Below, piece by piece: positions 2,979 to 45,194 of a stretch of 64,000 bases of DNA (positions are counted from its first letter, which is position 1; each line of letters opens with the position of its first letter). The stretch is from positions 7,845 through 71,844 of the IMG/VR virus record IMGVR_UViG_3300033121_000578; one strand, 5' to 3'. The notes beneath the pieces were generated by a model. The model was not told the DNA's origin and made no database searches. It worked only from the letters and a program-made list of their open reading frames with translations. The stretch comes from a virus. The position numbers were made by a program, and so were the translations under genes.

Positions 2979-3310
2979 TAGCTAAGCATTGGGGTGAGCA
3001 AATTCTTGGCCTTATCTACTTTCTCCACTTCCTGCAGCATCTCAGTCATTTTCTTGATAGAACCTCCGTTTTCGAGGTTAATCATGAGCATGAAGGAGAA
3101 CATCTCCACGGCCCTTTTGTTTTCATCAGTAGGTGCTACCTTATACTCCTTCAGGGCATCTTCGAGTTTCTCGATAATGTCTTCAGTAGGCATAATTGTA
3201 GCAGCCATAAACAGCAACTGTTTCATGTGACTTATTTTGGGGTTAATGAATACATAGAAAAGGACTAGTAGAGGGCTTAACGGACCCTCCATGAGGACAA
3301 ATATGTCCAC
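2978..3310 (-). CDS. hypothetical protein (110 aa; an internal Met near 3226 may be the real start)
   Basis: ORF in minus-strand block. Confidence 0.45.
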   Translation of the reverse strand: MDIFVLMEGPLSPLLVLFYVFINPKISHMKQLLFMAATIMPTEDIIEKLEDALKEYKVAPTDENKRAVEMFSFMLMINLENGGSIKKMTEMLQEVEKVDKAKNLLTPMLS

Positions 3311-3405
3311 CTCACCAAACTCACCTGTTTAGGGCATATTGTTCGGGAAACTAGTCCTACTCACTAACCCTCCATCATCACTGCTTTATAGTAATGAACG
3401 AGGGA

Positions 3406-3663
3406 TTAGCCACCCAGCTTTGCCATCAGCTCGGCAAGAGGGTTTTTGGCCTGTGAAATCAGGTCACCCAGCATAAAGCAGGATAACATCAGGCGTGTAG
3501 GGTCATCTTTGTACTTGTTGTACAGATGTTCCAGAGCCTTGGATTTGTTACCTGTTTCTGCAGCTTCAAAGACTTCAGGCTTGATTTCTTTGACGGCATC
3601 ATCGGGGAGAGACAGGCTCGCTGTGAGCGTCTTTTCTTCGTGTTTAAACTGTACTTGTTCCAT
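3406..3663 (-). CDS. hypothetical protein (85 aa)
   Basis: ORF. Confidence 0.5.
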   Translation of the reverse strand: MEQVQFKHEEKTLTASLSLPDDAVKEIKPEVFEAAETGNKSKALEHLYNKYKDDPTRLMLSCFMLGDLISQAKNPLAELMAKLGG

Positions 3664-7622: not shown

Positions 7623-7922
7623 CTAACGCAATGAAAGCCTGAGTTTATACTCGGATAACTTATCAATAATCTCTTTTATGCTCTTTTCACCACAGTTCCT
7701 GATTTTGGATAAATCCTCAATAGTATAGGTTGAGGTAAAATGCTCCAACGTATCATCAAGTACTCTTCCATCTAATTGGTAAAGAATATTGATGATTCTT
7801 GCGTTATATCCAAATACATCACGCATAGTTGGCTCAATATCAGGTTTTTGTAACTCTTCAGCTATCTCCTTAAGACTGTCTGCAATACCATGCAAAATTC
7901 TTGAGATTTTACTTTTGTTCAT
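7623..7922 (-). CDS. RNA polymerase alpha-subunit C-terminal-domain-like HhH DNA-binding protein
   Basis: C-terminal LSKIRNCGEKSIKEIIDKLSEYKLRLS closely matches the alpha-CTD motif [22 protein letters not shown] (recalled from memory). Confidence 0.55.
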   Translation of the reverse strand: MNKSKISRILHGIADSLKEIAEELQKPDIEPTMRDVFGYNARIINILYQLDGRVLDDTLEHFTSTYTIEDLSKIRNCGEKSIKEIIDKLSEYKLRLSLR

Positions 7923-14728: not shown

Positions 14729-15097
14729 ATGGTCATTAAGTCATTTCTAGATAAGGTTCTACTCCCTGACAAAAGGGATGTCCTGAGGGTGCATTTGTAT
14801 TTGAAATTTCTTCAATATAACATACAACCCTATGAAAATGACATCAATATAATAATTGAGTTATACTGTTTTGGAGGATACTCAAATTCCGAGAAACAGG
14901 AACAGTTCTTTGATACATGTTTGGAGAAGAAGTATAAGAAAAGTAAGCAATCTATCAGGAATACACTTTCTAAGTATACTAATCTTGGGGTTCTGGAAAA
15001 GCCCAGAAATACCTCATTATCAGTATCTTCTAAGTATATTCCACAGATTGACTTTGATAAATTGCTACTTCAACATACTATAACCCATGCAAACTAA
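14729..15097 (+). CDS. hypothetical protein (122 aa)
   Basis: ORF. Confidence 0.5.
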   Translation: MVIKSFLDKVLLPDKRDVLRVHLYLKFLQYNIQPYENDINIIIELYCFGGYSNSEKQEQFFDTCLEKKYKKSKQSIRNTLSKYTNLGVLEKPRNTSLSVSSKYIPQIDFDKLLLQHTITHAN

Positions 15098-16157: not shown

Positions 16158-17925
16158 AGTTAAATTCATAGAAGATACACACCAGTATTTGACAGAAGAT
16201 GGAAGAGAGTTAATCTCAGTGTCAGCATTTACAGAAAGATTTAAACCAAAAGTTGATTGGAAAGCAGTTGCCAAAAAGGTAGCAGCAAAAAAGACAAAAG
16301 CCGGAGAACCAACTACCACCGAGGAAATCCTTAAGAAGTGGGAGGAGAAGAGGGATTTATCTGCCAAAATAGGAACAATTTTTCACTCTATTAAGGAAGA
16401 AGAGTTGTTGGGGCAGGAAAATCCCATCTTTTATAATACACCATGTTCTACTAAGGAGTGCCTCTATACAGGAACAGACAAGTGGTCAATTCCCATTAAT
16501 AAGCTGGAGAATAATACCGTATATCCAGAATTAATGATATATGACATAGAGCATATGATTTGTGGACAATCAGATAAAGTAATTGTTGCCAACAATAAAA
16601 TAAATATCTGGGACTATAAAGGTTTGGCTCTTGATACAATAATACCTACAGAGACAGGATTTAAACTAATGGCTGATATTCAGGTTGGTGATAGGATTTT
16701 TGACGGAGAAGGTATATTAACATCAGTCAAGCATATTTCTGAAATACATTATAATCCATGTTACAGGGTATTTTTTGATACAGGTGATAGTATAGTATGT
16801 GACCATGAACATAAATGGGAGATTTCACACAGACTCTCAAAAGGTAAATATAAAGATTTAGAGAAAAGAACTGATGAATTATTCTCATATTTTGGTAAAG
16901 GTAAACCTATAAGAATAAAATGCAACCCTTTGGTTTTACCTAAAATTGAACTTCCTATAGACCCTTATATTTTAGGAGTGTGGTTAGGAGATGGTAACTC
17001 ACATGCTGGTAGAATTACAAATATGAATCCGAATTTATGGATAGAAATAGAGAAAAGAGGATATACTCTTGGGAAAGATATTTCAGGAGGTAGTTCTGGC
17101 AAAGCTCAGGATAAAACAATATTTGGATTAGAAACTCAATTAACAAAACTTGGATTACTTAAAAATAAACATATTCCTGATATATATCTTAGAGGGTCTT
17201 ATGAACAAAGATTAGATTTACTTCGTGGTCTTATGGATACAGATGGTAGTTGGAATAAAAAGAGAAAAAGATGTGTGATGGTTACAACAAAAGAATGGCA
17301 AGCTAATGGAATATCTGAAATAGTTTCGTCTCTTGGTTGGAAACCAACTATTATTAAAGCCAAAACATCAGGTTTTGGTAAAGATAATATATCTTGTTTT
17401 CATGTTAATTTTGATGCTAAGGAAAATCCATTTCTAACAAAGAATGAAGATTATAAACCTAATAATAAGGAGAAATCTAATTATAGATATATAAAAGAAA
17501 TAAGGAAGATAGATAGTATACCGACAAAATGTATATCTGTAGATAGTCCTGCTCATACATATCTTGTCACCAGAAATTACATAAAAACTCATAATACTGA
17601 CGCAGAGATAAAGTTTAAGGCTTTTTCTAGTCAGTGGGTAAAACCACAGAAGCTACTTGGACCATTGGCACACCTAGATGACTGTAATGCTAATATCTAT
17701 TCTATTAAGATGTCATTGTACATGTATCTTTTATGGAGAGCAAACAGGGGAACACTTAGGACGGGTGATATTATGATTGAGCATGTACATCTTGAGAGAG
17801 ATGAAGATGGACTTCCGATTCTTGAAGATGGCAAACCAATTGTAAAAAAGATTGAGCAAATCCAATTACCCTATCGAAAGAAGGAAGTTATGGATATGCT
17901 AGCAACCCTAAAAGTAAAAGCATGA
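16150..17925 (+). CDS. PD-(D/E)XK (RecB/Cas4/YqaJ-like) nuclease interrupted by an intein-like Hint plus LAGLIDADG homing-endonuclease insertion
   Basis: extein GQSDKV...IWDYKG|...|TDAEIKF gives D...DYK nuclease motifs. The insertion (about residues 158-482, nt ~16621-17595) starts with LALDTIIPTETG...VGDRIF (block A-like), has two LAGLIDADG motifs (ILGVWLGDGNSHA, LLRGLMDTDGSW) and ends with YLVTRNYIKTHN|T (block G HN plus Thr +1). Confidence 0.8.
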   Translation: MSKVKFIEDTHQYLTEDGRELISVSAFTERFKPKVDWKAVAKKVAAKKTKAGEPTTTEEILKKWEEKRDLSAKIGTIFHSIKEEELLGQENPIFYNTPCSTKECLYTGTDKWSIPINKLENNTVYPELMIYDIEHMICGQSDKVIVANNKINIWDYKGLALDTIIPTETGFKLMADIQVGDRIFDGEGILTSVKHISEIHYNPCYRVFFDTGDSIVCDHEHKWEISHRLSKGKYKDLEKRTDELFSYFGKGKPIRIKCNPLVLPKIELPIDPYILGVWLGDGNSHAGRITNMNPNLWIEIEKRGYTLGKDISGGSSGKAQDKTIFGLETQLTKLGLLKNKHIPDIYLRGSYEQRLDLLRGLMDTDGSWNKKRKRCVMVTTKEWQANGISEIVSSLGWKPTIIKAKTSGFGKDNISCFHVNFDAKENPFLTKNEDYKPNNKEKSNYRYIKEIRKIDSIPTKCISVDSPAHTYLVTRNYIKTHNTDAEIKFKAFSSQWVKPQKLLGPLAHLDDCNANIYSIKMSLYMYLLWRANRGTLRTGDIMIEHVHLERDEDGLPILEDGKPIVKKIEQIQLPYRKKEVMDMLATLKVKA

Positions 17926-36249: not shown

Positions 36250-37311
36250 ATGGCTTGTCCTGAAGTAAATCCTTGCGACCCTTGTAATGAATATGATAAC
36301 TGTGGTTGTCTTAATCCTACTACATTTGGGTGCGTAACAACAAATAAAGTAAGAGAGTGCCTTGGTACAGAATCAGGAGAGGATGGTGAAAGTGTCCTTG
36401 ATAAGATAGAGGAAAAGGTATGTAATATTGGAAAAGTTATCATTGATGATAATGATACTTGTCCTGAAGGTCTTTTTGATAAACTAGAAGCTGGTCTTAA
36501 TATATCTTTAACACAATCAGGTACTGGATGTGATAAAAAGATAAGAATTGATGCTACTGAAGGTGGTGTTCCAGTAGACGTAAATGTAAAAATATCTACA
36601 GATGACACAACAAGTGGATATCTATATGATAAAATACAAACAGGAACATATCTCACAAAATCAATAGTATCACCTGCGGGTAATGAAAAGCTAAGATTAG
36701 ATGTAGTACCATCTACTTTGATTTCATCTGATTTAGGAAATCAACTTGGTTTAGGTGGAGATGGAAAATTAGTTACCCTATATACTGCCCCTGATGGTAG
36801 TGAGACGCAGTTAATTGCTGGTACAGGTACCACTGTTAGTGGTTCTGGTACATTAGTTGACCCATATATAGTATCAACTAATGCATCTATTCAGGTAGCT
36901 CGTCCATGTTTTGATGGTATTTGGAGAAATATTACACTTGTAGCAACAGGTAATCCTAGTGTTACATACATGTCTGGTGCTCCTCAATATCGTTATCGTT
37001 TTGACGGAACTATTGAGTTCAGAGGCTCTGCTACATATCAAGTAGCTTTTGGTAATAATGTATCTGCATCCAGAAAGTTCACAATTACAGCTGGTAATAT
37101 ACCAACTACATGCTTAACTCTTGGTGAACAAGCTGGTACAATTGATTTAAAATCAATAACTTATATAGAAAGTGCAGGTCAGATGTACAACTATATCATA
37201 AGAAAAGCTACTCAAAATATAGTTCTGGAATTCCAGTCTTCATTTACTGCAGCTACAAATAAAACAATAGTTGTAAACTTTGAAGGAGCTGTGAGTCATC
37301 CCCTAATATAA
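36250..37311 (+). CDS. putative tail fibre protein with Cys-rich N-terminus (353 aa)
   Basis: MACPEVNPCDPCNEYDNCGC then Gly/Thr-rich repeats. Confidence 0.55.
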   Translation: MACPEVNPCDPCNEYDNCGCLNPTTFGCVTTNKVRECLGTESGEDGESVLDKIEEKVCNIGKVIIDDNDTCPEGLFDKLEAGLNISLTQSGTGCDKKIRIDATEGGVPVDVNVKISTDDTTSGYLYDKIQTGTYLTKSIVSPAGNEKLRLDVVPSTLISSDLGNQLGLGGDGKLVTLYTAPDGSETQLIAGTGTTVSGSGTLVDPYIVSTNASIQVARPCFDGIWRNITLVATGNPSVTYMSGAPQYRYRFDGTIEFRGSATYQVAFGNNVSASRKFTITAGNIPTTCLTLGEQAGTIDLKSITYIESAGQMYNYIIRKATQNIVLEFQSSFTAATNKTIVVNFEGAVSHPLI

Positions 37312-37361
37312 TTTGGACTTCAAATATAAAACCTCGGTTGTTGGTTCTCCGAGAAAGTTTG

Positions 37362-37394
37362 GGAGGGTATGTCTATACTCTCCTTTTATTTTTA
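37362..37394 (+). terminator. rho-independent terminator after the fibre cluster
   Basis: GGAGGGTAT(gtct)ATACTCTCC then TTTTATTTTT. Confidence 0.6.
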
Positions 37395-37413
37395 ACTCTT
37401 AAAACTTAATTAT

Positions 37414-37461
37414 ATGAAAAAGCTTTACGGTGGTGGTTGTGGATGTGGAGGTAAAAAATAA
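37414..37461 (+). CDS. tiny Gly/Cys peptide ORF (15 aa, MKKLYGGGCGCGGKK)
   Basis: ATG...TAA between a terminator and a promoter; speculative. Confidence 0.2.
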   Translation: MKKLYGGGCGCGGKK

Positions 37462-37482
37462 TTCCACATTTCTAAAGAAAAA

Positions 37483-37514
37483 TTTGGTTAGTAAAATAAT
37501 TTGTCATATATTTG
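37483..37514 (+). promoter_or_regulatory. Bacteroidetes-type promoter (-33 TTTG 37483-86, -7 TATATTTG 37507-14)
   Basis: consensus spacing of ~20; the ATG of the 29-aa ORF is 5 nt downstream. Confidence 0.55.
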
Positions 37515-37518
37515 CTAT

Positions 37519-37608
37519 ATGAAATTACAACGTACACATACACAATGGTTTACCTGCCCCCAGTGCCCATGCACAGGAGAGGGGTGTTGTGTATGTATAC
37601 TAAACTAA
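37519..37608 (+). CDS. 29-aa Cys-rich peptide (MKLQRTHTQWFTCPQCPCTGEGCCVCILN)
   Basis: its own promoter directly upstream and its own terminator 37634-37664 downstream; 7 Cys in 29 residues. Confidence 0.35.
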   Translation: MKLQRTHTQWFTCPQCPCTGEGCCVCILN

Positions 37609-37633
37609 AACAGTCAGAGGTATAAATATACAA

Positions 37634-37664
37634 CCCCATCCCAAAAAGGTGGGGTTTTCTTTTT
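37634..37664 (+). terminator. rho-independent terminator
   Basis: CCCCATCC(caaaaa)GGTGGGG then TTTTCTTTTT. Confidence 0.55.
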
Positions 37665-37702
37665 CGAGTGGTAGTTCAGTTGGTAGAATGCGTGCTTTAG
37701 AA
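37665..37702 (+). pseudogene. tRNA 5' half (acceptor CGAGTGG, D-arm GTTC-AGTTGGTA-GAAT, 5' anticodon stem CGTGC, loop TTTAGAA)
   Basis: canonical tRNA 5' structure that stops inside the anticodon loop; the matching 3' half is at 38299-38323. Confidence 0.55.
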
Positions 37703-37721
37703 AAGTAGTTGAGAAAATAAA

Positions 37722-37752
37722 TTTGGAAATCCAAAACTTTTTTCTTAACTTT
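37722..37752 (+). promoter_or_regulatory. Bacteroidetes-type promoter for the HNH gene (-33 TTTG, -7 TAACTTTG)
   Basis: aaataaaTTTGgaaatccaaaacttttttcTAacTTTGtgatATG. Confidence 0.5.
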
Positions 37753-37757
37753 GTGAT

Positions 37758-38240
37758 ATGAAAACCTTAATACTATGTAGCCATTGCGGAAATTCTTTTG
37801 AAGCAGAAAACAAATATATTAATTATAGTAAGAAAAAAGGATGGAATTTATATTGCTCGGAGAATTGTAAATTTGCAGGAAAGAAAAAATCTGAGGTATG
37901 TAATTGTCATACCTGTGGAAAATCTGTGATTAAAACACCATCCTCTAAAAAGAGGTCAATAAGTGGAAAGGTTTTCTGCAGTAGAAAATGTTCTACAATA
38001 TTTACTAATTCTGAATATAAAACAGGAGAAAGGCATCCTAATTATAATAATGGATTATCTTCTTATAGACAAAGAAAATTAAGAAGTGGCAATAACAAGT
38101 GCGAAGATTGTGGAAACTCTGATATAAGAGTATTAGAGGTTCACCATAGAGATGAAAATAGAAAGAATAACTCTCTTGAAAATTTAGCAATTCTTTGTGC
38201 TAATTGTCACAGAATAAGACATTTCGAGAATGTGGTGTAA
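37758..38240 (+). CDS. HNH homing endonuclease with N-terminal CxxC zinc-finger repeats
   Basis: C-terminal EVHHRDENRKNNSLENLAILCANCHRIRH is an HNH motif; multiple CxxC pairs. Confidence 0.75.
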   Translation: MKTLILCSHCGNSFEAENKYINYSKKKGWNLYCSENCKFAGKKKSEVCNCHTCGKSVIKTPSSKKRSISGKVFCSRKCSTIFTNSEYKTGERHPNYNNGLSSYRQRKLRSGNNKCEDCGNSDIRVLEVHHRDENRKNNSLENLAILCANCHRIRHFENVV

Positions 38241-38294
38241 TGGTAGCACTCTAAGTTTGGGACTTAGGAGAGCCGTTCGAATCGGACATTTTCG
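38226..38294 (+). tRNA. tRNA-Pro(TGG)-like with defective T-arm (possible pseudogene)
   Basis: acceptor GAGAATG/CATTTTC (7 bp, one GU), D-arm GTGT-AATGGTA-GCAC, anticodon arm CTAAG-TTTGGGA-CTTAG; the T-arm is only CCG-TTCGAAT-CGG; overlaps the HNH ORF 3' end. Confidence 0.4.
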
Positions 38295-38298
38295 ACTG

Positions 38299-38323
38299 AG
38301 TGGTTCGAGTCCAGTCCACTCGA
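38299..38323 (+). pseudogene. tRNA 3' part (T-arm AGTGG-TTCGAGT-CCAGT plus acceptor CCACTCG, discriminator A) matching the 5' half at 37665
   Basis: acceptor strand is the exact reverse complement of CGAGTGG at 37665-37671; the T-arm resembles bacterial tRNA-Asn. Confidence 0.55.
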
Positions 38324-38328
38324 CACAA

Positions 38329-38402
38329 GCCTGAGTAGCTTTAACTGGTAGAGCAGCTGCCTTGTAAGCAGACGGTTGCAGGTTCGAGTCCTGTCTTAGG
38401 CT
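38329..38402 (+). tRNA. tRNA-Thr(TGT)
   Basis: hand-folded cloverleaf: acceptor GCCTGAG/CTTAGGC, anticodon loop CTTGTAA, T-arm GCAGG-TTCGAGT-CCTGT. Confidence 0.8.
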
Positions 38403-38407
38403 CATAT

Positions 38408-38434
38408 GTCACCTTGGCTGAGTGGTCAAAGGCA
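38408..38434 (+). pseudogene. tRNA 5' fragment of class-II (Ser-like) type
   Basis: GTCACCT-TG-GCTGAGTGGTCAAAGGC resembles a tRNA-Ser acceptor plus D-arm, then breaks off into the HNH promoter. Confidence 0.4.
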
Positions 38435-38441
38435 AAATAAA

Positions 38442-38473
38442 TTTGGCAATTTGAACCTTTTGTTGTATATTTG
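38442..38473 (+). promoter_or_regulatory. Bacteroidetes-type promoter for the second HNH gene (-33 TTTG, -7 TATATTTG)
   Basis: aaataaaTTTGgcaatttgaaccttttgttgTAtaTTTGtat. Confidence 0.55.
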
Positions 38474-38490
38474 TATTATAATACAAAATT

Positions 38491-39084
38491 ATGAACAAGG
38501 GTTTAAAAAGTAAAGTTATTGAGTTATATTCACAAGGAAAATCATATAATCAAATTTCAGAGGAATTAGGTTGTAGTAAAGGAACAATATCTTTTCATGT
38601 TTCTTCTATGGCAGAAGAAAAGATACACAAGGTTCGAAGAGAAAAGAAAAAACAAATAGAAACCATAATTAATGAAGTTAAAGAGTCTAAAGGTTTAACT
38701 TTAAAAGACTTTGAAGACATCTACAGAATGACTCTTCCTTTAAAAGACTTCTTAAAACTGAGAAATGAGTTATTTGAGAAAAAATATATTACCAAGGAAC
38801 TAAGTGTTGCAGATTATCATAAAAATAGAAGAAGACAAATAAAAAAAGAATTGGTTGACATTAAAGGTGGAAAATGTCAAGTGTGTGGATATAATAAATG
38901 TCTTAGGTCATTAGAGTTTCATCATCTAGACCCTTTACAAAAAGATTTTACAATATCTGGAAATCTCAAAAGAATTAAGAGAGAAAAAGTAATAAAAGAG
39001 CTAGAAAAATGCATATTAGTATGTTCTAACTGTCATGGAGAAATACATGATGGATTAATAAGAGTAGATACCAGAGAGGATTAA
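38491..39084 (+). CDS. HNH homing endonuclease with N-terminal HTH
   Basis: CQVCGYNKCLRSLEFHHLDPLQKDFTISGNLKRI...CSNCHGEIH is an HNH motif; N-terminal YSQGKSYNQISEELGCSKGTISFHV is HTH-like. Confidence 0.75.
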   Translation: MNKGLKSKVIELYSQGKSYNQISEELGCSKGTISFHVSSMAEEKIHKVRREKKKQIETIINEVKESKGLTLKDFEDIYRMTLPLKDFLKLRNELFEKKYITKELSVADYHKNRRRQIKKELVDIKGGKCQVCGYNKCLRSLEFHHLDPLQKDFTISGNLKRIKREKVIKELEKCILVCSNCHGEIHDGLIRVDTRED

Positions 39085-39137
39085 TGGCTCAGACTGCAAA
39101 TCTGTTGATTTCGGGAGTTCGAATCTCCCTCTACTCT
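39062..39137 (+). tRNA. tRNA-Cys(GCA)
   Basis: acceptor GAGTAGA/TCTACTC perfect, anticodon loop CTGCAAA, T-arm GGGAG-TTCGAAT-CTCCC; atypical D-arm; the 5' 23 nt overlap the HNH ORF end. Confidence 0.6.
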
Positions 39138-39143
39138 CATAAT

Positions 39144-39216
39144 GGTAAGTTAGCAAAGATGGTCTATGCGGAGGACTGAAAATCCTTAGATAGTGGTTCG
39201 ATACCACTACTTACCA
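39144..39216 (+). tRNA. tRNA-Phe(GAA)
   Basis: acceptor GGTAAGT/ACTTACC, anticodon loop CTGAAAA, T-arm AGTGG-TTCGATA-CCACT. Confidence 0.8.
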
Positions 39217-39222
39217 CAACAT

Positions 39223-39295
39223 ACGGGTGCTCAAGGCTGGCGTGATAAACCGTCTCCAAAACGGTGACTTGGGGAATCGTTCTCTCCCACCCGTG
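39223..39295 (+). tRNA. tRNA-Trp(CCA)
   Basis: acceptor ACGGGTG/CACCCGT, anticodon arm ACCGT-CTCCAAA-ACGGT; weak D-stem and unusual T-loop ATCGTTC. Confidence 0.6.
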
Positions 39296-39300
39296 CATAT

Positions 39301-39372
39301 TTCCAAGTAGGATAATGGTATTCCGTCAGATTTTGGCTCTGAAAATTCTAGGTTCGACCCCTAGCTTGGAAA
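39301..39372 (+). tRNA. tRNA-Gln(TTG)
   Basis: acceptor TTCCAAG/CTTGGAA, anticodon arm TCAGA-TTTTGGC-TCTGA, T-arm CTAGG-TTCGACC-CCTAG. Confidence 0.8.
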
Positions 39373-39374
39373 CT

Positions 39375-39449
39375 GGTGTCTATAGCTTAACTGGATAGAG
39401 CCCCTGATTGTGGCTCAGGGTTGTGCCGATTCGAATTCGGTTAGACACC
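39375..39449 (+). tRNA. tRNA-His(GTG) with G-1:C73
   Basis: 8-bp acceptor GGTGTCTA/TAGACACC including the His-specific G-1; anticodon loop TTGTGGC. Confidence 0.85.
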
Positions 39450-39453
39450 CACT

Positions 39454-39527
39454 GCTCCCATAGCTTAACTGGATAAAGCACATGGCTACGGACCATGAGA
39501 CTGAGGGCTCGAATCCTTCTGGGAGTA
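39454..39527 (+). tRNA. tRNA-Arg(ACG)
   Basis: D-arm GCTT-AACTGGATA-AAGC, anticodon arm CATGG-CTACGGA-CCATG, T-arm GAGGG-CTCGAAT-CCTTC. Confidence 0.8.
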
Positions 39528-39562
39528 CATTAACAATTCATTAGGATATATATGTCGTATAT

Positions 39563-39835
39563 TTGTGTATGCAATTCAATCCAAACTCAAACGAATATCT
39601 TAGTAAATTTGAACCTAAGACATGGGATGAAATAAAAGAACAACCATCTCATGATAATATATGGGTGAAAGACCCAGAAAAGCTTCTTAAGCTTGAGAAT
39701 ATGACGGGAATATGGTCTCAACTTCAAGAGCCGTCTAGGCAGATAACCCTAATGACAGGTAGGGGTGGAATGGAGCTCTTTCAGAAAGCAATGAAAGAAA
39801 TGTTTGAAAAAGAGCAAGAAAAATTTGGAAATTAG
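39563..39835 (+). CDS. hypothetical protein (90 aa)
   Basis: ORF between tRNA clusters. Confidence 0.45.
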   Translation: MCMQFNPNSNEYLSKFEPKTWDEIKEQPSHDNIWVKDPEKLLKLENMTGIWSQLQEPSRQITLMTGRGGMELFQKAMKEMFEKEQEKFGN

Positions 39836-39855
39836 AAAATTAGTTCGTATATTTG
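39823..39855 (+). promoter_or_regulatory. Bacteroidetes-type promoter (-33 TTTG, -7 TATATTTG) with no ORF downstream
   Basis: aaaaaTTTGgaaattagaaaattagttcgTAtaTTTGtattcg. Confidence 0.5.
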
Positions 39856-39861
39856 TATTCG

Positions 39862-40036
39862 TAAAAACATTAAACAGCAGATGTACTTATTTTATATGAT
39901 AGCGGATAATGGAGATGTGAGAGGCATTGAGAAAAATGGCTCCGGGTTTCCTATGTCTGTTGTCTAAGTAGAAACAAATACCAACTGATTAGAAGCCTGG
40001 AGCCTAGCCACAAGCTACTCCGGGTTTTTTCGTTTT
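39862..40036 (+). ncRNA. candidate ~170-nt noncoding transcript (promoter to terminator, no significant ORF)
   Basis: bounded by the promoter at 39823-39855 and the hairpin CCTGGAG(N16)CTCCGGG plus TTTTTT at 39996-40036; contains direct repeat CTCCGGGTTT at 39940 and 40017. Confidence 0.35.
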
Positions 40037-40037
40037 A

Positions 40038-40111
40038 GCCCTTGTAGCTTGAAGGCCAAGCAATAGACTTTTAATCTATGGTTCTCAGTTCGATTCTGAG
40101 CAGGGGTACCA
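40038..40111 (+). tRNA. tRNA-Lys(TTT), CCA encoded
   Basis: anticodon arm ATAGA-CTTTTAA-TCTAT, T-arm CTCAG-TTCGATT-CTGAG, acceptor GCCCTTG/CAGGGGT then ACCA. Confidence 0.8.
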
Positions 40112-40115
40112 AAAT

Positions 40116-40145
40116 GCTTTTGTAGCTCATGTGGAAGCAGCTATC
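40116..40145 (+). pseudogene. tRNA 5'-half-like fragment (acceptor plus D-arm GCTC-ATGTGGAA-GC)
   Basis: GCTTTTG-TA-GCTCATGTGGAAGCAGC; no T-arm; overlaps the start of tRNA-Lys(CTT). Confidence 0.3.
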
Positions 40146-40220
40146 CCAGTCTTAGCAAAATTTGGTGTTGCTCCTGACTCTTAATCAGGTAAAAAGTGAG
40201 TTCGATTCTCACAGGCTGGA
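40146..40220 (+). tRNA. tRNA-Lys(CTT)
   Basis: D-arm GCAA-AATTTGGTG-TTGC, anticodon arm CCTGA-CTCTTAA-TCAGG, T-arm GTGAG-TTCGATT-CTCAC. Confidence 0.8.
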
Positions 40221-40235
40221 CATAATAAATTATAT

Positions 40236-40308
40236 TGAGGGATGCAGCAGTGGTAGCTGGCAGGTCTCATAAGCCTCGCAGTCGTGGGTTCGAGTCCCAC
40301 TCCCTCAA
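40236..40308 (+). tRNA. tRNA-Met(CAT), elongator or Ile2-type
   Basis: acceptor TGAGGGA/TCCCTCA, D-arm CAGC-AGTGGTA-GCTG, anticodon loop CTCATAA, T-arm GTGGG-TTCGAGT-CCCAC. Confidence 0.7.
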
Positions 40309-40313
40309 CAAAA

Positions 40314-40345
40314 TTTGGTCATTATTTATAATCTCCATACATTTG
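40314..40345 (+). promoter_or_regulatory. Bacteroidetes-type promoter (-33 TTTG, -7 TACATTTG) giving a near-leaderless start at 40349
   Basis: aaaaTTTGgtcattatttataatctccaTAcaTTTGtatATG. Confidence 0.5.
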
Positions 40346-40348
40346 TAT

Positions 40349-40813
40349 ATGGAAAGATATTTTCGGACAGAGGATGGTAAGATGGTAAATGTCATAGAAC
40401 ACACTTTGGAACAAATAGAAAAGTGGCCAAATCTTAAAATCTATATAGCAACTGATAGTCAGGATTCAGGAAAAGAATCAAAGTATGCTACAGTAGTTGT
40501 ATATAGATATGGAACAAGAGGGGCACACTATATTTACTTCAAGGATGCAGTTCCAAGAAGAGATATGTTTACTCGTCTTTATGATGAAGCTGTTCGTACA
40601 ATAGAGACTGCTCAAATGATTGATAGTGAGATACCTGTATCATTTGCAGCTCTTGAGTTTGACTATAATACTTTACCTAAGTGGGCAAGTAATAAGCTTG
40701 TATCATCAATAAGAGGATGGGTAAAGGGATTAAATTATAACTTTGTATTTAAGAATACAGGAAATGACATCATGATAGCTGCAAAGGCAGCAGACCATGT
40801 ATGTAGAAGGTAA
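40349..40813 (+). CDS. hypothetical protein, possibly RNase H-like fold nuclease (154 aa)
   Basis: start at ATG 40349 (the listed ORF's N-terminus is translated tRNA); KIYIATDSQDS and IMIAAKAADH are loosely RuvC/RNase H-like. Confidence 0.45.
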   Translation: MERYFRTEDGKMVNVIEHTLEQIEKWPNLKIYIATDSQDSGKESKYATVVVYRYGTRGAHYIYFKDAVPRRDMFTRLYDEAVRTIETAQMIDSEIPVSFAALEFDYNTLPKWASNKLVSSIRGWVKGLNYNFVFKNTGNDIMIAAKAADHVCRR

Positions 40814-40885
40814 GCAGTAGTAGTGCTAATGGTAACACGCCAGCCTTCCACGCTGGATTTGAGAGTTCGAGTCTCTTCTACTGCT
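40814..40885 (+). tRNA. tRNA-Gly(TCC)
   Basis: acceptor GCAGTAG/CTACTGC, anticodon arm CCAGC-CTTCCAC-GCTGG, T-arm GAGAG-TTCGAGT-CTCTT. Confidence 0.8.
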
Positions 40886-41003
40886 CATAAGCCCGAAGTA
40901 CAAGGGAACGAAGATAGAGTAACTCCTCTGGAAACATGAAACTCTCTAAATCGTAGGTTAGCACAGTTTGAAGGTCTGGGGATATTGTTTAAAACCTTCA
41001 ATT

Positions 41004-41076
41004 GCAGCAATAGCTCAATTGGTAGAGCGTGACCTTGCCAAGGTTAAGGTTGCAGGTTCGAGACCTGTTTGCTGCT
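41004..41076 (+). tRNA. tRNA-Gly(GCC)
   Basis: acceptor GCAGCAA/TTGCTGC, D-arm GCTC-AATTGGTA-GAGC, anticodon loop TTGCCAA. Confidence 0.8.
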
Positions 41077-41081
41077 CATAT

Positions 41082-41155
41082 GCTCCTGTGGACAAGTTGG
41101 TTAAGTCACTTGCCTTTCACGCAAGTCATCGTGGGTTCGAGCCCCATCAGGAGTA
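41082..41155 (+). tRNA. tRNA-Glu(TTC)
   Basis: anticodon arm CTTGC-CTTTCAC-GCAAG, T-arm GTGGG-TTCGAGC-CCCAT. Confidence 0.8.
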
Positions 41156-41160
41156 CATAA

Positions 41161-41235
41161 GGAACCATGGTCGAATTGGTTACGATTCCACCCTGTCACG
41201 GTGCGAGATTGCGGGTTCGAGTCCCGTTGGTTCCG
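41161..41235 (+). tRNA. tRNA-Asp(GTC)
   Basis: acceptor GGAACCA/TGGTTCC, anticodon loop CTGTCAC, T-arm GCGGG-TTCGAGT-CCCGT. Confidence 0.75.
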
Positions 41236-41290
41236 CTAGGAGAGCACGTTTTGTACGTCTGAGGCTGAAAGAAGCAATCCCTCTCCATCC

Positions 41291-41362
41291 ACTCTTATAG
41301 CTCAATGGTAGAGCACATGCCTTATACGCATTAGGTTTCCAGTTCGAATCTGGATGAGAGTA
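41291..41362 (+). tRNA. tRNA-Ile(TAT)
   Basis: D-arm GCTC-AATGGTA-GAGC, anticodon loop CTTATAC (U33, TAT, A37), T-arm TCCAG-TTCGAAT-CTGGA, acceptor ACTCTTA/TGAGAGT. Confidence 0.7.
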
Positions 41363-41424
41363 CAGGAGATAACCTCTGGTATACAAGTGGCCACCCTGTG
41401 TCTATGGGTCAAGTTATCTCAATT

Positions 41425-41497
41425 GCTCATATAACTCAATTGGTAGAGTACTACTCCGATACGGTAGAAGTTATAGGTTCGAGACCTATTATGAGCA
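41425..41497 (+). tRNA. tRNA-Ile(GAT)
   Basis: acceptor GCTCATA/TATGAGC perfect, D-arm ACTC-AATTGGTA-GAGT, anticodon loop CCGATAC (C33 atypical), T-arm ATAGG-TTCGAGA-CCTAT. Confidence 0.6.
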
Positions 41498-41498
41498 C

Positions 41499-41969
41499 AT
41501 GAAACCATTTAAAGAAGCATTAGAAGAGGCAACAATCTATGAAGATTTGATTGCAAACTGGTTAGAATCCAGAGGAAATAAGATACTTTTTCGTTCAAAA
41601 GAGAAGGAGTTTGACATACAATATCTAACAGTAGATGGTAAAACAAAAACTATTGAAGTAAAATATGACAAGCTATCTTCTGAAACAGGTAATGTAGCAA
41701 TTGAATTTAAAAGAAAAAACAAGAAATCTGAGGAATTTGAAGCAACTGGAATATCAGTTACAACTGCAAATTATTGGGTACACATAGTAGATAAATTTGA
41801 TGTCTATATTATAGATAGAGAGATACTACTAATGCAGATTCAAAGTAATGGATACCCACAGGTATTTGGTGGAGATGATATGAGAACTAAAATGCATCTT
41901 ATAGATAAACAGGAATTTGCAGAAATGTGCAAAGTATATAAGAATGCTTTATACGGGGGATTAGTATAG
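41499..41969 (+). CDS. hypothetical protein (156 aa)
   Basis: ORF starting 2 nt after tRNA-Ile; its 3' end overlaps tRNA-Ala. Confidence 0.5.
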   Translation: MKPFKEALEEATIYEDLIANWLESRGNKILFRSKEKEFDIQYLTVDGKTKTIEVKYDKLSSETGNVAIEFKRKNKKSEEFEATGISVTTANYWVHIVDKFDVYIIDREILLMQIQSNGYPQVFGGDDMRTKMHLIDKQEFAEMCKVYKNALYGGLV

Positions 41970-42027
41970 ATGGCAAAAATACCTGATTTGCATTCAGGAG
42001 TCACCAGTTCGATGCTGGTATCCTCCA
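41955..42027 (+). tRNA. tRNA-Ala(TGC) with G3:U70
   Basis: acceptor GGGGGAT/ATCCTCC carrying the Ala identity G3:U70 wobble; anticodon arm CCTGA-TTTGCAT-TCAGG, T-arm ACCAG-TTCGATG-CTGGT. Confidence 0.8.
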
Positions 42028-42083
42028 CATTTATTTGGTAATATGGAAATTTTGTAGTATATTGTACTATAAATAATACTACC

Positions 42084-42302
42084 ATGTTACAAGAAAAAGA
42101 TTTATATTGGCTTGCTGGTCTATTAGAAGGTGAAGGTTATTTCCAACCAAAGAGGAAATCAAGTCCTGTAATTGCACTTGAGATTACTGATGAAGATATA
42201 ATACAAAGAGTTTGCAAACTTATAGGTACAACTTATTGTAAACCAAAGATTAGGAAACAAACTCATAGACAATCCTTTAAAACTACTTTAAATTGTATTT
42301 AA
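42084..42302 (+). pseudogene. truncated LAGLIDADG homing endonuclease (72-aa N-terminal fragment)
   Basis: LYWLAGLLEGEGYF motif, but the ORF is too short for a functional single-motif enzyme. Confidence 0.5.
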
Positions 42303-42320
42303 TCCTTAATTAATAGTAAT

Positions 42321-43235
42321 ATGACACAAGAACAAATAGAAAAGGAATTTAAAAAAATTAAAAGATTAATTTGTTGCTCTGCTGCTACACCACTTAGATT
42401 TGGAGTATTAGGAGAAGATGATACTGGAATTGAAGCTAGAGCTTTTACTACTAACGATGATTTTCAGCTTTTACTTGATGGCGTAGATGGTACAAAAAAT
42501 ATTTTTTTAAGAAATAGTTATGGTGTAGGTAGTCAATTTTCTGAAGTATCGTTACAATCATCTTCATTTATAGCAAGAGGGCAAGAATCAGTAACAGGAA
42601 CAGGTCAGTTTAGTTTATCAAATTTGACTATGAGTATGAGTTCTGATAATCAAGCTTTTTATCAAGCTGAAAATGGTTATTTAATGTTGCAATTAGGTTG
42701 GCAAGATAAGCTTTTTCAAATTGGCGATGTTGATGCAAACTATAATGGAACAAAAATAACAATTGATGATGCTAATTCAATAGTAGCTGTAACTAATATT
42801 CCTTTAGAAATTCCATCATCAGATGCAGATAGGCTTTTATTTCAAAGTGATGGTGACACACAAATAAAAGCTACTACAATTTCTGATTTATTAGGATATA
42901 AAGTATATACAGCATTATTAACACAAAGAGGAACTGCTGCACCAACAGCAGTGATATTAAAAAATACACTAGGTGGTATTCCTACATGGACAAGAGAAGG
43001 ACTTGGAAAATATAGAGCAACACTAGCAAATACATTTAATGTAAGTAAAACAGCAGTGCTAATAACAGCATCAACAGAGAATTTACAGACTGATGAAGTG
43101 GCCATAGGAGTTGCGAGATTTGACAATGGTACAAATGACGACTATATAGAAATAGTCACAGGAGAACCGTCATTCTGGGGACAAGTGGATAATGCATTAT
43201 CAAAAACGACAATAGAAATAAGAGTATATAATTAA
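42321..43235 (+). CDS. hypothetical protein, possibly fibre/receptor-binding-like (304 aa)
   Basis: long ORF; terminator GGAGC(cttgt)GCTCC plus TTTTATTTTT at 43316-43342. Confidence 0.55.
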   Translation: MTQEQIEKEFKKIKRLICCSAATPLRFGVLGEDDTGIEARAFTTNDDFQLLLDGVDGTKNIFLRNSYGVGSQFSEVSLQSSSFIARGQESVTGTGQFSLSNLTMSMSSDNQAFYQAENGYLMLQLGWQDKLFQIGDVDANYNGTKITIDDANSIVAVTNIPLEIPSSDADRLLFQSDGDTQIKATTISDLLGYKVYTALLTQRGTAAPTAVILKNTLGGIPTWTREGLGKYRATLANTFNVSKTAVLITASTENLQTDEVAIGVARFDNGTNDDYIEIVTGEPSFWGQVDNALSKTTIEIRVYN

Positions 43236-43370
43236 AAATTAAAATAAAATCAAAATGAAAAAAGAAAGTTGGCGATTCCGACCTCCCCAACACATACTGT
43301 TGATTTTCAATTATTAGGAGCCTTGTGCTCCTTTTATTTTTCGCTGTTAACATAGTTTTAACTTTAATAA

Positions 43371-43403
43371 TTTGGAAAACCCTTCCCGGTAATAGTATAT
43401 TTG
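43371..43403 (+). promoter_or_regulatory. Bacteroidetes-type promoter (-33 TTTG, -7 TATATTTG)
   Basis: taaTTTGgaaaacccttcccggtaatagTAtaTTTGctat. Confidence 0.5.
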
Positions 43404-43432
43404 CTATATCAATAACAAATTAAAATTATTAC

Positions 43433-43591
43433 ATGAAACGTCAGATTGAACAACACCTTTTAGCTAATCCTTCATTTTTCAAATGGGGTGAAACAAGACT
43501 TGCAAATAAATATAATTGCTCAGTTAAGACAATTAGAAGTATTGTCAAAAAACTTGAGCCTCAAAGACAAAATTACTTGCGAAGCCTCTAA
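43433..43591 (+). CDS. small HTH-like protein (52 aa)
   Basis: unlisted ORF MKRQIEQHLLANPSFFKWGETRLANKYNCSVKTIRSIVKKLEPQRQNYLRSL with a promoter upstream and terminator GAAGGG(N12)CCCTTC-TTTTTT at 43607-43640. Confidence 0.3.
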   Translation: MKRQIEQHLLANPSFFKWGETRLANKYNCSVKTIRSIVKKLEPQRQNYLRSL

Positions 43592-43654
43592 TTTTGTTAT
43601 CTTTAAGAAGGGTAGGTAATACTGCCCTTCTTTTTTATTAACTAAAATCAAGGT

Positions 43655-44491
43655 ATGATAACAAGAGCAAAAGTAAAAAATTTTCTACTCTCTAAAAGAG
43701 GATATCTTAAAAAATCTCCACTTAAGGTTGCTGAGGCACTTTGGAAAAATGAACAATCATCTCACTCAAAAACTCACCAAGAATTAAAAAAAGAACTTGA
43801 CATCATTGCTGATGTACAGTATACTTTGCGTGAGGCAGAAAGATATATTATATCTAAAGAAGAACAAGATTTACTTGACACATTTAACGATATTCAGAAA
43901 AAGAACAATCAACCAAAACGTAAGTTATTCTTTGATATAGAAGTATCTCCAAATCTAGTATTCTCTTGGGGAGTAGGTAATAAAATAAACATATCTCATG
44001 AATCAATTGTACAAGAAAGAGCTATTATTTGTATATGTTGGAAATGGGCAGGAGAAGATAAAGTACATTCTCTAAGATGGAATAATGGTGATGATGGAGA
44101 TATGTTAACAAAATTTGCATCAATAATAGATTCAGCAGATGAAGTTATTGCCCAAAATGGAGATAATTTTGATATCAAATGGTTAAGAACCAGATGTTTA
44201 TATCACAATATCCCAATATCTTCCAAGTTTAATAGCATTGATACATTAAAAATGGCTCGTTCTAATTTTAGATTTAATGCTAATAGACTAGATTATATGG
44301 GTAGATTTTTAGGACATGGTGGTAAAATTCATACAGAATACGATATGTGGAAGAAAATTGTCCTCGAAAACGATAAAAAGTCAATGGAATTGATGATATC
44401 TTATTGTAAAGAGGACGTGAATTTACTTGAAAAAGTCTATAACTCATTACAAGAATATAGCCCTGTAAAAAGATTTAAATACAAACCTTGA
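43655..44491 (+). CDS. DEDDy 3'-5' exonuclease (family-B-polymerase-type Exo I/II/III motifs), stand-alone
   Basis: Exo I FFDIEVSP, Exo II IAQNGDNFDIKWL, Exo III YCKEDVNLLEKVY; no polymerase motifs in this or neighbouring ORFs. Confidence 0.7.
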   Translation: MITRAKVKNFLLSKRGYLKKSPLKVAEALWKNEQSSHSKTHQELKKELDIIADVQYTLREAERYIISKEEQDLLDTFNDIQKKNNQPKRKLFFDIEVSPNLVFSWGVGNKINISHESIVQERAIICICWKWAGEDKVHSLRWNNGDDGDMLTKFASIIDSADEVIAQNGDNFDIKWLRTRCLYHNIPISSKFNSIDTLKMARSNFRFNANRLDYMGRFLGHGGKIHTEYDMWKKIVLENDKKSMELMISYCKEDVNLLEKVYNSLQEYSPVKRFKYKP

Positions 44492-44510
44492 TTAAGCTCA
44501 ACATGTGAAC

Positions 44511-44627: not shown

Positions 44628-45194
44628 GTGAAACCAACCAAAGCAGGTATATATCTAATAATCAGCCCCTCAGGAGGTCATTATATAGGCCAAAGTTGGG
44701 ATTTAGATAAGAGAGTAAGGCACTACAGAAATGCAGATTGTAAGTGTCAAAGGAAACTGTACTATTCTATAAAGAAGTATGGATGGAATACTCATGAGTT
44801 CAAAGTTGTACATTCGTTACCAAATGATATATCACAAAATGTGATGAATGATTATGAAACTTTCTACTATAATTCTTATAAAGAGTTGAATTTCAATATG
44901 TTAAACCTTCGTGAGGCTGGAAGTAGGGGGAAGAATTCGGAGGAAACTTTAGAGAAGATGAGAAAGACTCACAAGGAGAATTATAGAACAGGGAAAAGAA
45001 AAGGTGCTGAGGAAAGAAAGATTATACAATTTGATTTGGAGGGAAATTTCATAAGAGAGTGGAACTCTCAGAAAGAAGCAGCAGAATACATTAACATTGA
45101 CAGAACCTGCATTCACTATGCAATAAAAGGGAAGACCAGTCATGCTGGAGGGTTTCTGTGGAAAAAGAAGAACCATGAAGCCTACATACAGTAA
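44628..45194 (+). CDS. GIY-YIG homing endonuclease with C-terminal NUMOD/HTH-like DNA-binding region
   Basis: GIYLIISPSGGHYIGQS...R..HY is a GIY-YIG motif; C-terminal IREWNSQKEAAEYINIDRTCIHYAIKG; GTG start. Confidence 0.8.
   Translation: MKPTKAGIYLIISPSGGHYIGQSWDLDKRVRHYRNADCKCQRKLYYSIKKYGWNTHEFKVVHSLPNDISQNVMNDYETFYYNSYKELNFNMLNLREAGSRGKNSEETLEKMRKTHKENYRTGKRKGAEERKIIQFDLEGNFIREWNSQKEAAEYINIDRTCIHYAIKGKTSHAGGFLWKKKNHEAYIQ

Follow-up and report, generated by a model that had tools for sequence, protein, structure and literature searches.

What breaks and rebuilds the tRNA-gene arrays of bacteriophages? Such arrays are increasingly viewed as counter-measures to tRNA-cleaving defences and as a means of matching codon usage, but the fast change in their content is less clear. 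Here, we address this question for an array found in a 64,000-nucleotide stretch of viral DNA (positions 7,845 to 71,844 of IMG/VR record IMGVR_UViG_3300033121_000578; this whole stretch is referred to as the window), where tRNA genes are interleaved with tRNA fragments and nuclease genes. The array extends over positions 37665-43291, i.e., past the end assigned to it in an earlier note on this DNA, and is flanked on both sides by terminators (Table 1). It is probably an island of free-standing homing endonuclease genes, which would use tRNA genes as targets as well as patches of homology.

Related arrays were recovered from IMG/VR and metagenomes by means of the protein encoded just 5' of the array (36250-37311). 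The amino-acid (aa) identity of this protein to that of the window is 99% in contigs L001, L004 and L005, 93% in L006, 85% in L007, 65-66% in L002 and L003, and 61% in L009 (CXWK01028456.1). The latter contig has no tRNA genes within 10 kb on either side, which shows that not every member of this phage group has the array.

Broken tRNA genes and the cassettes beside them

ARAGORN and the Rfam tRNA model agree on 17 tRNA genes in the array, which all lie on the + strand and extend from 38225 to 42028. Each forms a cloverleaf accepted by the tRNA finder and scores 44.2-68.2 bits with RF00005 (gathering threshold 29 bits). Their order is Pro-tgg, Thr-tgt, Cys-gca, Phe-gaa, Gln-ttg, His-gtg, Arg-acg, Lys-ttt, Lys-ctt, Met-cat, Gly-tcc, Gly-gcc, Glu-ttc, Asp-gtc, Ile-tat, Ile-gat and Ala-tgc. 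The earlier note had listed 18 genes; the isotypes and anticodons given there stand for these 17, but the remaining one, a tRNA-Trp at 39223-39295, is a relic. It is rejected by ARAGORN down to -ps60 and by Rfam at E<=10, is accepted by ARAGORN in mitochondrial mode only, and has a fold energy like that of shuffled sequences (z=-0.2). It nevertheless aligns in register with the genuine tRNA-Trp(CCA) found between Phe and Gln in L002, L003, L006 and L007; the acceptor stem and the anticodon loop CTCCAAA of these relatives are kept, and the D arm and T loop (ATCGTTC, with A53-T61) are degenerate. By this alignment, the segment is a decayed gene and not a chance match.

In addition, the array contains five fragments of tRNA genes, named f1-f5 in Table 1. 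The first four had been reported in the earlier note (at 37665, 38299, 38408 and 40116) with the caveat that they could be random similarity; alignments with syntenic tRNA genes of related contigs established all four as real and added the fifth. Fragment f1 comprises the 5' strand of the acceptor stem (CGAGTGG), the D arm, and the 5' strand and loop of the anticodon stem, and matches tRNA-Pro of L002 at 24 of 29 positions. Its acceptor strand is perfectly complementary to CCACTCG in f2, which carries the discriminator A seen in other Pro genes and is followed by the spacer CACAA, identical to that after tRNA-Pro in L006 and L007. The hairpin and T-tract of the terminator on the other side of f1 also precede the intact tRNA-Pro of these two contigs. 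The two fragments are thus the two ends of one resident tRNA-Pro. Because f1 and f2 align to a single tRNA-Pro in L006 and L007, share its flanks and have complementary strands, the 594 nucleotides (nt) between the fragments form a cassette inside the resident gene. This cassette consists of a promoter, an HNH endonuclease gene (HNH#1) and a different, non-canonical tRNA-Pro (acceptor stem of 8 bp, T stem of 4 bp). Two other interpretations of these fragments were rejected. An intron-split tRNA composed of f1 and f2 would require a complement to the anticodon stem (GCACG), which is not found before f2, and Rfam revealed no intron; a suppressor tRNA was rejected for f1 because its loop TAG (Leu) fits two G-to-A changes from the TGG of Pro.

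A similar arrangement is found for tRNA-Cys. Fragment f3 is identical over its entire length to the resident tRNA-Cys of L007 and over 22/22 positions to the D arm of tRNA-Cys in L002 (z ~9.5 relative to shuffles), and it is followed directly by the promoter of the second HNH gene (HNH#2), HNH#2 itself and a different tRNA-Cys. The latter is identical to the resident-type tRNA-Cys of L007 at only 49 of 77 positions, with differences along the entire length. A degenerate-pattern search for this cassette tRNA-Cys found a match in the L001 contig only and identified no donor. In L006 a comparable scar is seen, composed of positions 1-23 of tRNA-Cys, a 119-aa HNH gene (58% identical to the C-terminal part of HNH#2) and an intact tRNA-Cys. 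Fragment f4 (z ~8) is followed by a divergent intact tRNA-Lys(ctt), and f5, at the right edge of the array, is also found in L001, just after the intact tRNA-Tyr there. Beside each stub (Pro, Cys, Lys-ctt and Tyr) there is an intact tRNA of the same anticodon but of different sequence. Taken alone, f1 and f2 are only ~4-5 standard deviations above shuffles. A strict blastn-short screen recovered only the perfect stubs, namely f3 of the window, that of tRNA-Cys in L006 and, in L001, a T-arm match of 18 nt at 17588-17605, between Leu-taa and Ser. The other intergenic spacers of the array have no tRNA similarity above shuffles, and those at 40887-41003, 41237-41290 and 41364-41424 also lack unusual folding. 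Collectively, these alignments indicate that the fragments are insertion and recombination scars, which mark junctions inside tRNA genes.

Table 1. Coordinates of the elements of the tRNA array and its borders (positions in the window)
Feature	Positions	Strand	Basis or remark
Intrinsic terminator, left array edge, directly 5' of first (ancestral) tRNA	37632..37656	+	terminator scan
f1, positions 1-38 of resident tRNA-Pro	37665..37702	+	aligns to Pro 5' half of L002, L006, L007
Promoter (-33 TTTG / -7 TAnnTTTG) of HNH#1 cassette	37722..37753	+	pattern search
HNH#1, free-standing HNH endonuclease gene, 160 aa	37758..38240	+	Pfam HNH 1.3e-6; PHROG HNH families
tRNA-Pro(tgg), replacement copy carried with HNH#1	38225..38296	+	ARAGORN; Rfam 44.2 bits, array minimum
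f2, T arm, acceptor 3' strand CCACTCG and discriminator A of resident tRNA-Pro	38297..38323	+	aligns to L006/L007 Pro 3' part
tRNA-Thr(tgt)	38329..38403	+	ARAGORN, Rfam
f3, positions 1-27 of resident tRNA-Cys	38408..38434	+	27/27 identical to L007 tRNA-Cys
Promoter of HNH#2 cassette	38442..38473	+	pattern search
HNH#2, free-standing HTH + HNH endonuclease gene, 197 aa	38491..39084	+	Pfam GerE/HTH + HNH; PHROG HNH 4.5e-25
tRNA-Cys(gca), replacement copy linked to HNH#2	39062..39138	+	ARAGORN; Rfam 50.0 bits
tRNA-Phe(gaa)	39144..39217	+	ARAGORN, Rfam
Decayed tRNA-Trp(CCA) relic	39223..39295	+	register alignment with relatives' Trp genes
tRNA-Gln(ttg), tRNA-His(gtg), tRNA-Arg(acg)	39301..39528	+	ARAGORN, Rfam
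Conserved resident ORF, 88-90 aa	39563..39835	+	95% identical in L001
Structured small RNA, own promoter 39824-39855, terminator hairpin	39862..40034	+	fold z=-5.3
tRNA-Lys(ttt)	40038..40111	+	ARAGORN, Rfam
f4, positions 1 to ~30 of resident tRNA-Lys(ctt)	40116..40145	+	19/20 to L001 Lys-ctt D arm; 14/14 to L007 5' end
tRNA-Lys(ctt), divergent replacement copy, and tRNA-Met(cat)	40146..40309	+	ARAGORN, Rfam
Conserved RNaseH_like ORF (PF04308/DUF458)	40349..40813	+	Pfam 1.7e-11; also L001, L003, L007
tRNA-Gly(tcc), Gly(gcc), Glu(ttc), Asp(gtc), Ile(tat), Ile(gat)	40814..41498	+	ARAGORN, Rfam
PD-(D/E)XK nuclease ORF, 156 aa, candidate fourth endonuclease family	41499..41969	+	invariant residues; AlphaFold2; Foldseek
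tRNA-Ala(tgc)	41955..42028	+	ARAGORN; Rfam 51.4 bits
Truncated LAGLIDADG endonuclease ORF, 72 aa	42084..42302	+	Pfam LAGLIDADG_3 1.5e-5; PHROG 5046
ORF304, window-only cargo, in place of relatives' Leu/Leu/Ser/Tyr	42321..43235	+	comparison with relatives
f5, T arm + acceptor 3' end of ancestral tRNA-Tyr, right array edge	43271..43291	+	aligns to L007 tRNA-Tyr 3' end
Terminator closing array	43316..43332	+	terminator scan
GIY-YIG + NUMOD1 free-standing endonuclease gene	44628..45194	+	GIY-(10)-YIG motif by translation; NUMOD1; PHROG

Nuclease genes and turnover across related phages

Domains of the HNH, GIY-YIG, LAGLIDADG and PD-(D/E)XK types were identified in or near the array from Pfam, PHROG, motifs or fold. 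The two HNH genes, the truncated LAGLIDADG open reading frame (ORF) and the GIY-YIG gene further on had all been named in the earlier note, and the Pfam, PHROG and motif searches agree with these assignments. The LAGLIDADG ORF is the N-terminal half of an enzyme, spanning positions 4-79 of 161 in PHROG 5046. The GIY-YIG/NUMOD1 gene, located 2.6 kb beyond the last tRNA gene, matches the PHROG "homing endonuclease with GIY-YIG motif" and is a clean 537-nt insertion between a PolB-exonuclease-like gene (43655-44491) and the next gene; segment 44639-45175 is absent from all relatives, and in L001, L002, L003, L005 and L007 the flanks join seamlessly.

A further nuclease ORF (41499-41969), which had been left unclassified, begins 1 nt past tRNA-Ile(gat). 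It belongs to a family of ~150-aa proteins with more than 2,000 cluster representatives, and residues D39, E53, K55 and E69 are invariant in 50 homologues. A sequence search against the PDB gave weak matches at most. An AlphaFold2 model built from a 50-sequence alignment (predicted local distance difference test, pLDDT, 92) has as its best solved-structure match the homing endonuclease I-Ssp6803I (2OST; Foldseek E=4.4e-4, probability 1.00, template-modelling score 0.50-0.55), followed by Hjc resolvases and EcoRV. The protein is 92% identical to the L007 copy and 29% identical to the L001 copy; it is absent in L003.

Three of the nuclease ORFs end within the tRNA gene that follows, i.e., HNH#1 in tRNA-Pro (16 nt), HNH#2 in tRNA-Cys (23 nt) and the PD-(D/E)XK ORF in tRNA-Ala (15 nt), of which the Cys and Ala overlaps had been noted before. 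Consequently, tRNA-Pro contains the last 5 codons and the stop codon of HNH#1, and tRNA-Cys contains the last 7 codons and the stop codon of HNH#2. This is the usual arrangement of endonuclease ORFs: of 14 HNH ORFs located directly 5' of a tRNA in related arrays, 13 end 15-53 nt within the tRNA, with the stop codon in the D arm and in one case in the anticodon loop. Overlapped tRNAs score lower with the tRNA model than the others (median 47 vs 58 bits; one-sided Mann-Whitney p ~0.001, with isotype and shared ancestry as confounders). Of 15 unrelated viral contigs with a homologue of HNH#2, jumbo phages included, 14 have it in a tRNA array, and the homologues mostly end inside a tRNA or a few nt from one, in either orientation. 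An unrelated viral contig (L014, positions 3001-3647) harbors a full-length homologue (46% aa identity) with a tRNA-Cys directly after it; the D arm of this tRNA, CCA GAGTGGTTGAT TGG, resembles that of the cassette-linked tRNA-Cys of the window, CCA GAGAGGATTAA TGG, which hints that endonuclease and tRNA-Cys can travel together. HNH#1 has no relatives in IMG/VR apart from that in the L001 contig.

A comparison across related phages, proposed in the earlier note as a check, revealed that the tRNA order is shared and that the endonuclease slots differ. The order Pro Thr Cys Phe Trp Gln His Arg Lys Lys Val Arg Asn Met Gly Gly Glu Asp Ile Ile Ala Leu Leu Ser Tyr is kept in six lineages, the fullest versions of which have 24-27 genes. 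The slots between tRNA genes that are taken by endonuclease genes number at least 12 when all lineages are considered, and the same set is never shared by two lineages. At syntenic sites, presence/absence polymorphism is found for HNH#1, HNH#2, the GIY-YIG gene and the LAGLIDADG stub: HNH#1 is absent from L002, L003, L006 and L007, where tRNA-Pro is intact; HNH#2 is absent from L002 and L007 and is cut down in L001, L004 and L005, which lack 38408-38873; and the LAGLIDADG stub is found in the window only. In L001 the deletion took away f3 and the promoter together with two thirds of HNH#2, of which a 67-aa stub is left. In addition to this stub, the array of L001 contains HNH#1, three more HNH genes and a 52-aa NUMOD4 stub of an HNH_3-type endonuclease, 5' of tRNA-Lys(ttt) (L001 13312-13470).

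The array of the window lacks Val, Arg-tct and Asn, found between Lys-ctt and Met in relatives, as well as Leu, Leu, Ser and Tyr. The codons AGA and GTA, read by lost tRNAs, account for 65% of Arg and 49% of Val codons in the window and are the commonest of each, a loss that fits collateral damage rather than adaptation. The DNA itself is mosaic. Blocks that are 96-99.9% identical between the window and L001 (also L004 and L005) are interrupted by segments, in and beside the array, that cannot be aligned (38408-38873, 40115-40231, 41237-43272 and 44639-45175), while the block composed of Ile-gat, the PD-(D/E)XK ORF and Ala is 91% identical to L007 between flanks at 70-80% (blastn). These blocks (91% against 70-80% for L007; 99.8-99.9% beside unalignable DNA for L001) fit co-conversion without proving it. 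A search of the array for near-identical DNA in 50,697 phage records gave no match, and a search for more distant DNA gave only generic tRNA similarity and the C-terminal part of HNH#2. Taken together, the lineage-specific slots, the unalignable blocks, the decay of HNH#2, the tRNA losses and the junctions inside tRNAs support the view, put forward in the earlier note, of a recombination hotspot that is being eroded and rebuilt.

Explanations for the turnover

The tRNA genes, the nuclease domains, the cassettes inside tRNA-Pro and tRNA-Cys, the polymorphism, the mosaic blocks and the ORF-tRNA overlaps can be read directly from the DNA. By analogy with known systems (see below), the tRNA genes would be the targets of the nucleases and homing during co-infection would be the driver of the turnover. 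In such a scheme, each endonuclease gene would be a small cassette that carries a -33/-7 promoter of its own and directly abuts the 5' end of a tRNA gene; its ORF would have no stop codon of its own and would read into the tRNA to the first in-frame stop, usually in the D arm. The endonucleases would cut endonuclease-free alleles during co-infection, and the break would be repaired from a diverged, endonuclease-carrying genome. Because tRNA genes would be the only good patches of homology between diverged phages, the joints would fall inside tRNA genes. Imprecise joints would leave the stub of a resident tRNA beside an incoming intact tRNA of the same anticodon, as for Pro, Cys, Lys-ctt and Tyr, and would also produce duplications and deletions. 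Other events would delete neighboring tRNAs (Val, Arg-tct, Asn, Leu, Leu, Ser and Tyr in the window) or degrade endonuclease genes (the LAGLIDADG stub of the window and the HNH#2 stub of L001).

Several points weigh against this explanation. The nuclease activity and the cleavage sites are taken from analogy; the Pfam scores of the HNH domains are modest (21-29 bits); and the PD-(D/E)XK ORF is found at one conserved slot in three lineages, i.e., it could be resident rather than mobile. The junctions differ (tRNA positions 23, 27, ~30 and 38, and the T loop), and a single cleavage site is not evident. Clean homing should leave no stubs, so that illegitimate or microhomology joining must be assumed. 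Furthermore, the relatives are all metagenome assemblies.

A more specific proposal, which we put forward tentatively and consider to be more doubtful than the homing scheme itself, is that the HNH#2 family and its neighbors are parasites specialized in tRNA genes across very different phages, with self-compensating promoter-endonuclease-tRNA cassettes and a stop-in-tRNA brake on expression. Here, the cassette would destroy the resident tRNA and supply a divergent, possibly cleavage-immune tRNA of the same anticodon, making the insertion self-compensating, while cleavage by RNase P would strip the mRNA of its stop codon, thereby holding a toxic nuclease at a low level.

Alternatively, the endonucleases could be domesticated helpers, the breaks of which amplify or reshuffle tRNA genes such that host tRNA-cleaving defences are evaded and the turnover is adaptive. 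Amplification of tRNA-Tyr driven by SegB of phage T6 overcomes, i.e., evades, the Septu defence system, and SegB homologues are enriched near tRNAs (PMC13096335), which makes a partly adaptive role of the endonucleases possible also here. The tie of the HNH#2 family to tRNA arrays across very different phages points in the same direction, as do the replacement tRNAs, which differ from the resident ones and could change sensitivity to host nucleases. However, no tandem amplification of a tRNA segment is seen in the window or in its relatives, the endonuclease genes are themselves decaying (the 72-aa LAGLIDADG stub and the 67-aa HNH#2 stub of L001), and the window has lost the tRNAs for its most used Arg and Val codons. 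We therefore regard this alternative as unlikely; it is, moreover, compatible with a selfish-element model and does not replace it.

Ordinary slippage, tandem duplication and deletion between similar tRNAs, with the endonuclease genes as bystanders in a dispensable region, appears less probable still. The conserved D-loop and T-loop sequences of tRNA genes do favor misalignment, no intact endonuclease gene lies directly beside f4 or f5 in the window, and tRNA clusters of phage T4 are dispensable (PMC2330249). On the other hand, f1 and f3 abut the cassette promoters and f2 follows directly after the cassette tRNA; the replacement tRNA-Pro and tRNA-Cys diverge from the stubs from end to end and are thus not duplicates of resident genes; the related HNH gene of L006 lies at nearly the same point in tRNA-Cys; and members of the HNH#2 family are linked specifically to tRNA genes in phages that are unrelated. 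Chance similarity or faulty assembly is hardly credible as the source of the fragments, the Trp relic and the overlaps, for even though the Trp segment folds no better than shuffles and f1 and f2 are weak when taken alone, f3 is identical to a syntenic tRNA, f1, f2 and f4 lie in register with syntenic tRNAs and their flanks, other spacers have no such similarity, and the same junctions are found in the independent assemblies L001, L004 and L005.

Neighboring elements and known systems

The phage itself, which is uncultured, is placed, from ring-protein domains and terminase likeness, as a candidate distant crAss-like virus. In Pfam searches, its proteins matched the tail-ring domains CrAss_Ring_2 (1.7e-15) and, below the cut-off for that family, CrAss_Ring_1 (2.3e-4). 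A protein of 760 aa has 24-27% identity with large terminase subunits from crAss-like and Flavobacterium phages, and the relationship is a distant one. Outside the array, segment 31718-34367, among large structural ORFs, cannot be aligned to L001, which is otherwise 95-96% identical; it could be a swapped tail-fibre or receptor-binding module.

The motif TTTG-N15-23-TAnnTTTG, i.e., the -33 TTTG / -7 TAnnTTTG pattern of Bacteroidota promoters, has 14 copies in the window as compared with 4.0 expected, a number reached in 0 of 100 shuffles. The enrichment is limited to this motif, as the scan did not find the sigma-70 consensus enriched (37 vs 30 expected). Six + strand copies within 37483-43403 (pattern search) precede both HNH genes, a micro-ORF, the RNaseH-like ORF, a small HTH ORF and the structured RNA. 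The earlier note had assigned such a promoter to almost every unit of the array, which is too strong, as the promoters serve ORFs or cassettes and one small RNA, not single tRNAs. In four units the -7 box ends 3-4 nt 5' of the ATG (37514/37519, 37753/37758, 39565/39569 and 40345/40349), which implies leaderless or near-leaderless mRNAs for HNH#1, the RNaseH-like ORF, ORF88 and the micro-ORF. Just 5' of the array, between two terminators, there are two tiny Cys/Gly-rich ORFs on the + strand, 37414-37461 (MKKLYGGGCGCGGKK, 15 aa) and 37519-37608 (MKLQRTHTQWFTCPQCPCTGEGCCVCILN, 29 aa), the latter with a perfect promoter at 37483-37514.

Within the array, the RNaseH-like ORF is a resident gene, not mobile; it lies between tRNA-Met and tRNA-Gly(tcc), and its stop codon abuts the latter. 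Neither the conserved ORF at 39563-39835 nor ORF304 has a match in Pfam or PHROG, and ORF304 has no relative in IMG/VR. The small RNA just 5' of tRNA-Lys(ttt) is ~170 nt long, with a minimum free energy of -54.5 kcal/mol, and none of 200 shuffles folds as well. It is kept in L001, L006 and L007, with 4 compensatory pairs among 3 sequences, matches no Rfam family, and possibly corresponds to the stable "species I/II" RNAs in the tRNA cluster of phage T4. A different kind of change is seen for tRNA-Ile(TAT) (41291-41363), which is orthologous, as judged by position and a DNA identity of 80%, to a tRNA of L007 with the anticodon CAT (14944-15018). The anticodon TAT is rare in bacterial tRNA-Ile, and the CAT tRNA is probably of the lysidine-dependent Ile2 type. 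The pair is an anticodon switch between related phages; ATA accounts for 44% of the Ile codons in the window.

Among known enzymes, I-Ssp6803I (PDB 2OST) is encoded in a group I intron and its target is a tRNA gene (tRNA-fMet). The ORF at 41499-41969 shares with it the D...ExK motif of PD-(D/E)XK nucleases and the size of ~150 aa, but the sequence identity is only 16-18% and Hjc resolvases are nearly as close. Furthermore, this ORF is free-standing, between intact tRNA-Ile(gat) and tRNA-Ala genes, and Rfam found no intron family in 36500-44500.

Another parallel is segB of phage T4. SegB is described as cutting the T-loop region of tRNA genes and as driving inheritance of the tRNA cluster, and loss of the segB stop codon in processing of tRNA-Arg is proposed as a brake on expression (PMC2330249). 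The likeness (PMC2330249; PMC13096335) includes a free-standing homing endonuclease gene within a phage tRNA cluster, its presence or absence among close relatives with gain or loss of neighboring tRNA genes, and an ORF that ends at the processing site of the next tRNA. The targets of SegB are conserved tRNA-gene sequences, and the same would hold here by analogy; that f2 and f5 start at the T arm is an indirect hint at recognition of the conserved T-loop sequence GGTTCRANTCC, as by SegB. SegB is, however, a GIY-YIG enzyme encoded within the cluster, whereas the genes within the present array are HNH genes, a LAGLIDADG stub and a PD-(D/E)XK ORF, the GIY-YIG ORF being located outside, 2.6 kb past the last tRNA. 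There is one such gene in T4, as compared with 2-7 per array in the lineage described here. Unlike segB, the cassettes of the window, known from sequence, have their own promoters and are found inside split resident tRNA genes.

HNH-type ORFs among tRNA genes are also described for phage T5 (F-TflI/II/IV) and for mycobacteriophage arrays, where they are proposed to diversify the tRNA repertoire (PMC2330249, PMC6409571). These are other phage groups with other hosts, likened by description rather than sequence, and the passages considered make no mention of split-tRNA stubs or of same-anticodon replacements. The "HNH endonuclease" g371 of Yersinia phage fHe-Yen9-04 (NC_042116.1) is one of the HNH#2 homologues counted above, with 62% aa and ~73% DNA identity to the C-terminal part of HNH#2, and overlaps the tRNA that follows by 24 nt (RefSeq annotation). 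Its partner is tRNA-Ser, not tRNA-Cys, and the phage is a jumbo phage of Enterobacteria with one tRNA in the 6-kb stretch examined. Clusters of nuclease genes also mark boundaries of genetic exchange between phages, with recombination via homology internal to the islands (Barth et al. 2023, PMC10448857); those islands contain T5orf172 and IPA-HNH genes with protein-coding cargo, whereas in the window both cargo and homology patches are tRNA genes.

The locus is a well-resolved new example of the phenomenon known from T4 SegB and the T5 HNH genes rather than a new kind of system. What is modestly new is that resident tRNAs are split and have replacements of the same anticodon, and that one HNH lineage is widely tied to tRNA genes. 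The locus extends the T4 SegB/T5 picture to HNH and PD-(D/E)XK enzymes and to phages of Bacteroidota that are probably crAss-like. The relatives form a natural series, from untouched Pro/Thr/Cys (L007, L002) via fresh cassettes (window) to decaying ones (L001), with joints mapped to the nucleotide, and thereby supply concrete substrates for asking whether such enzymes cut tRNA genes, as T4 SegB does.

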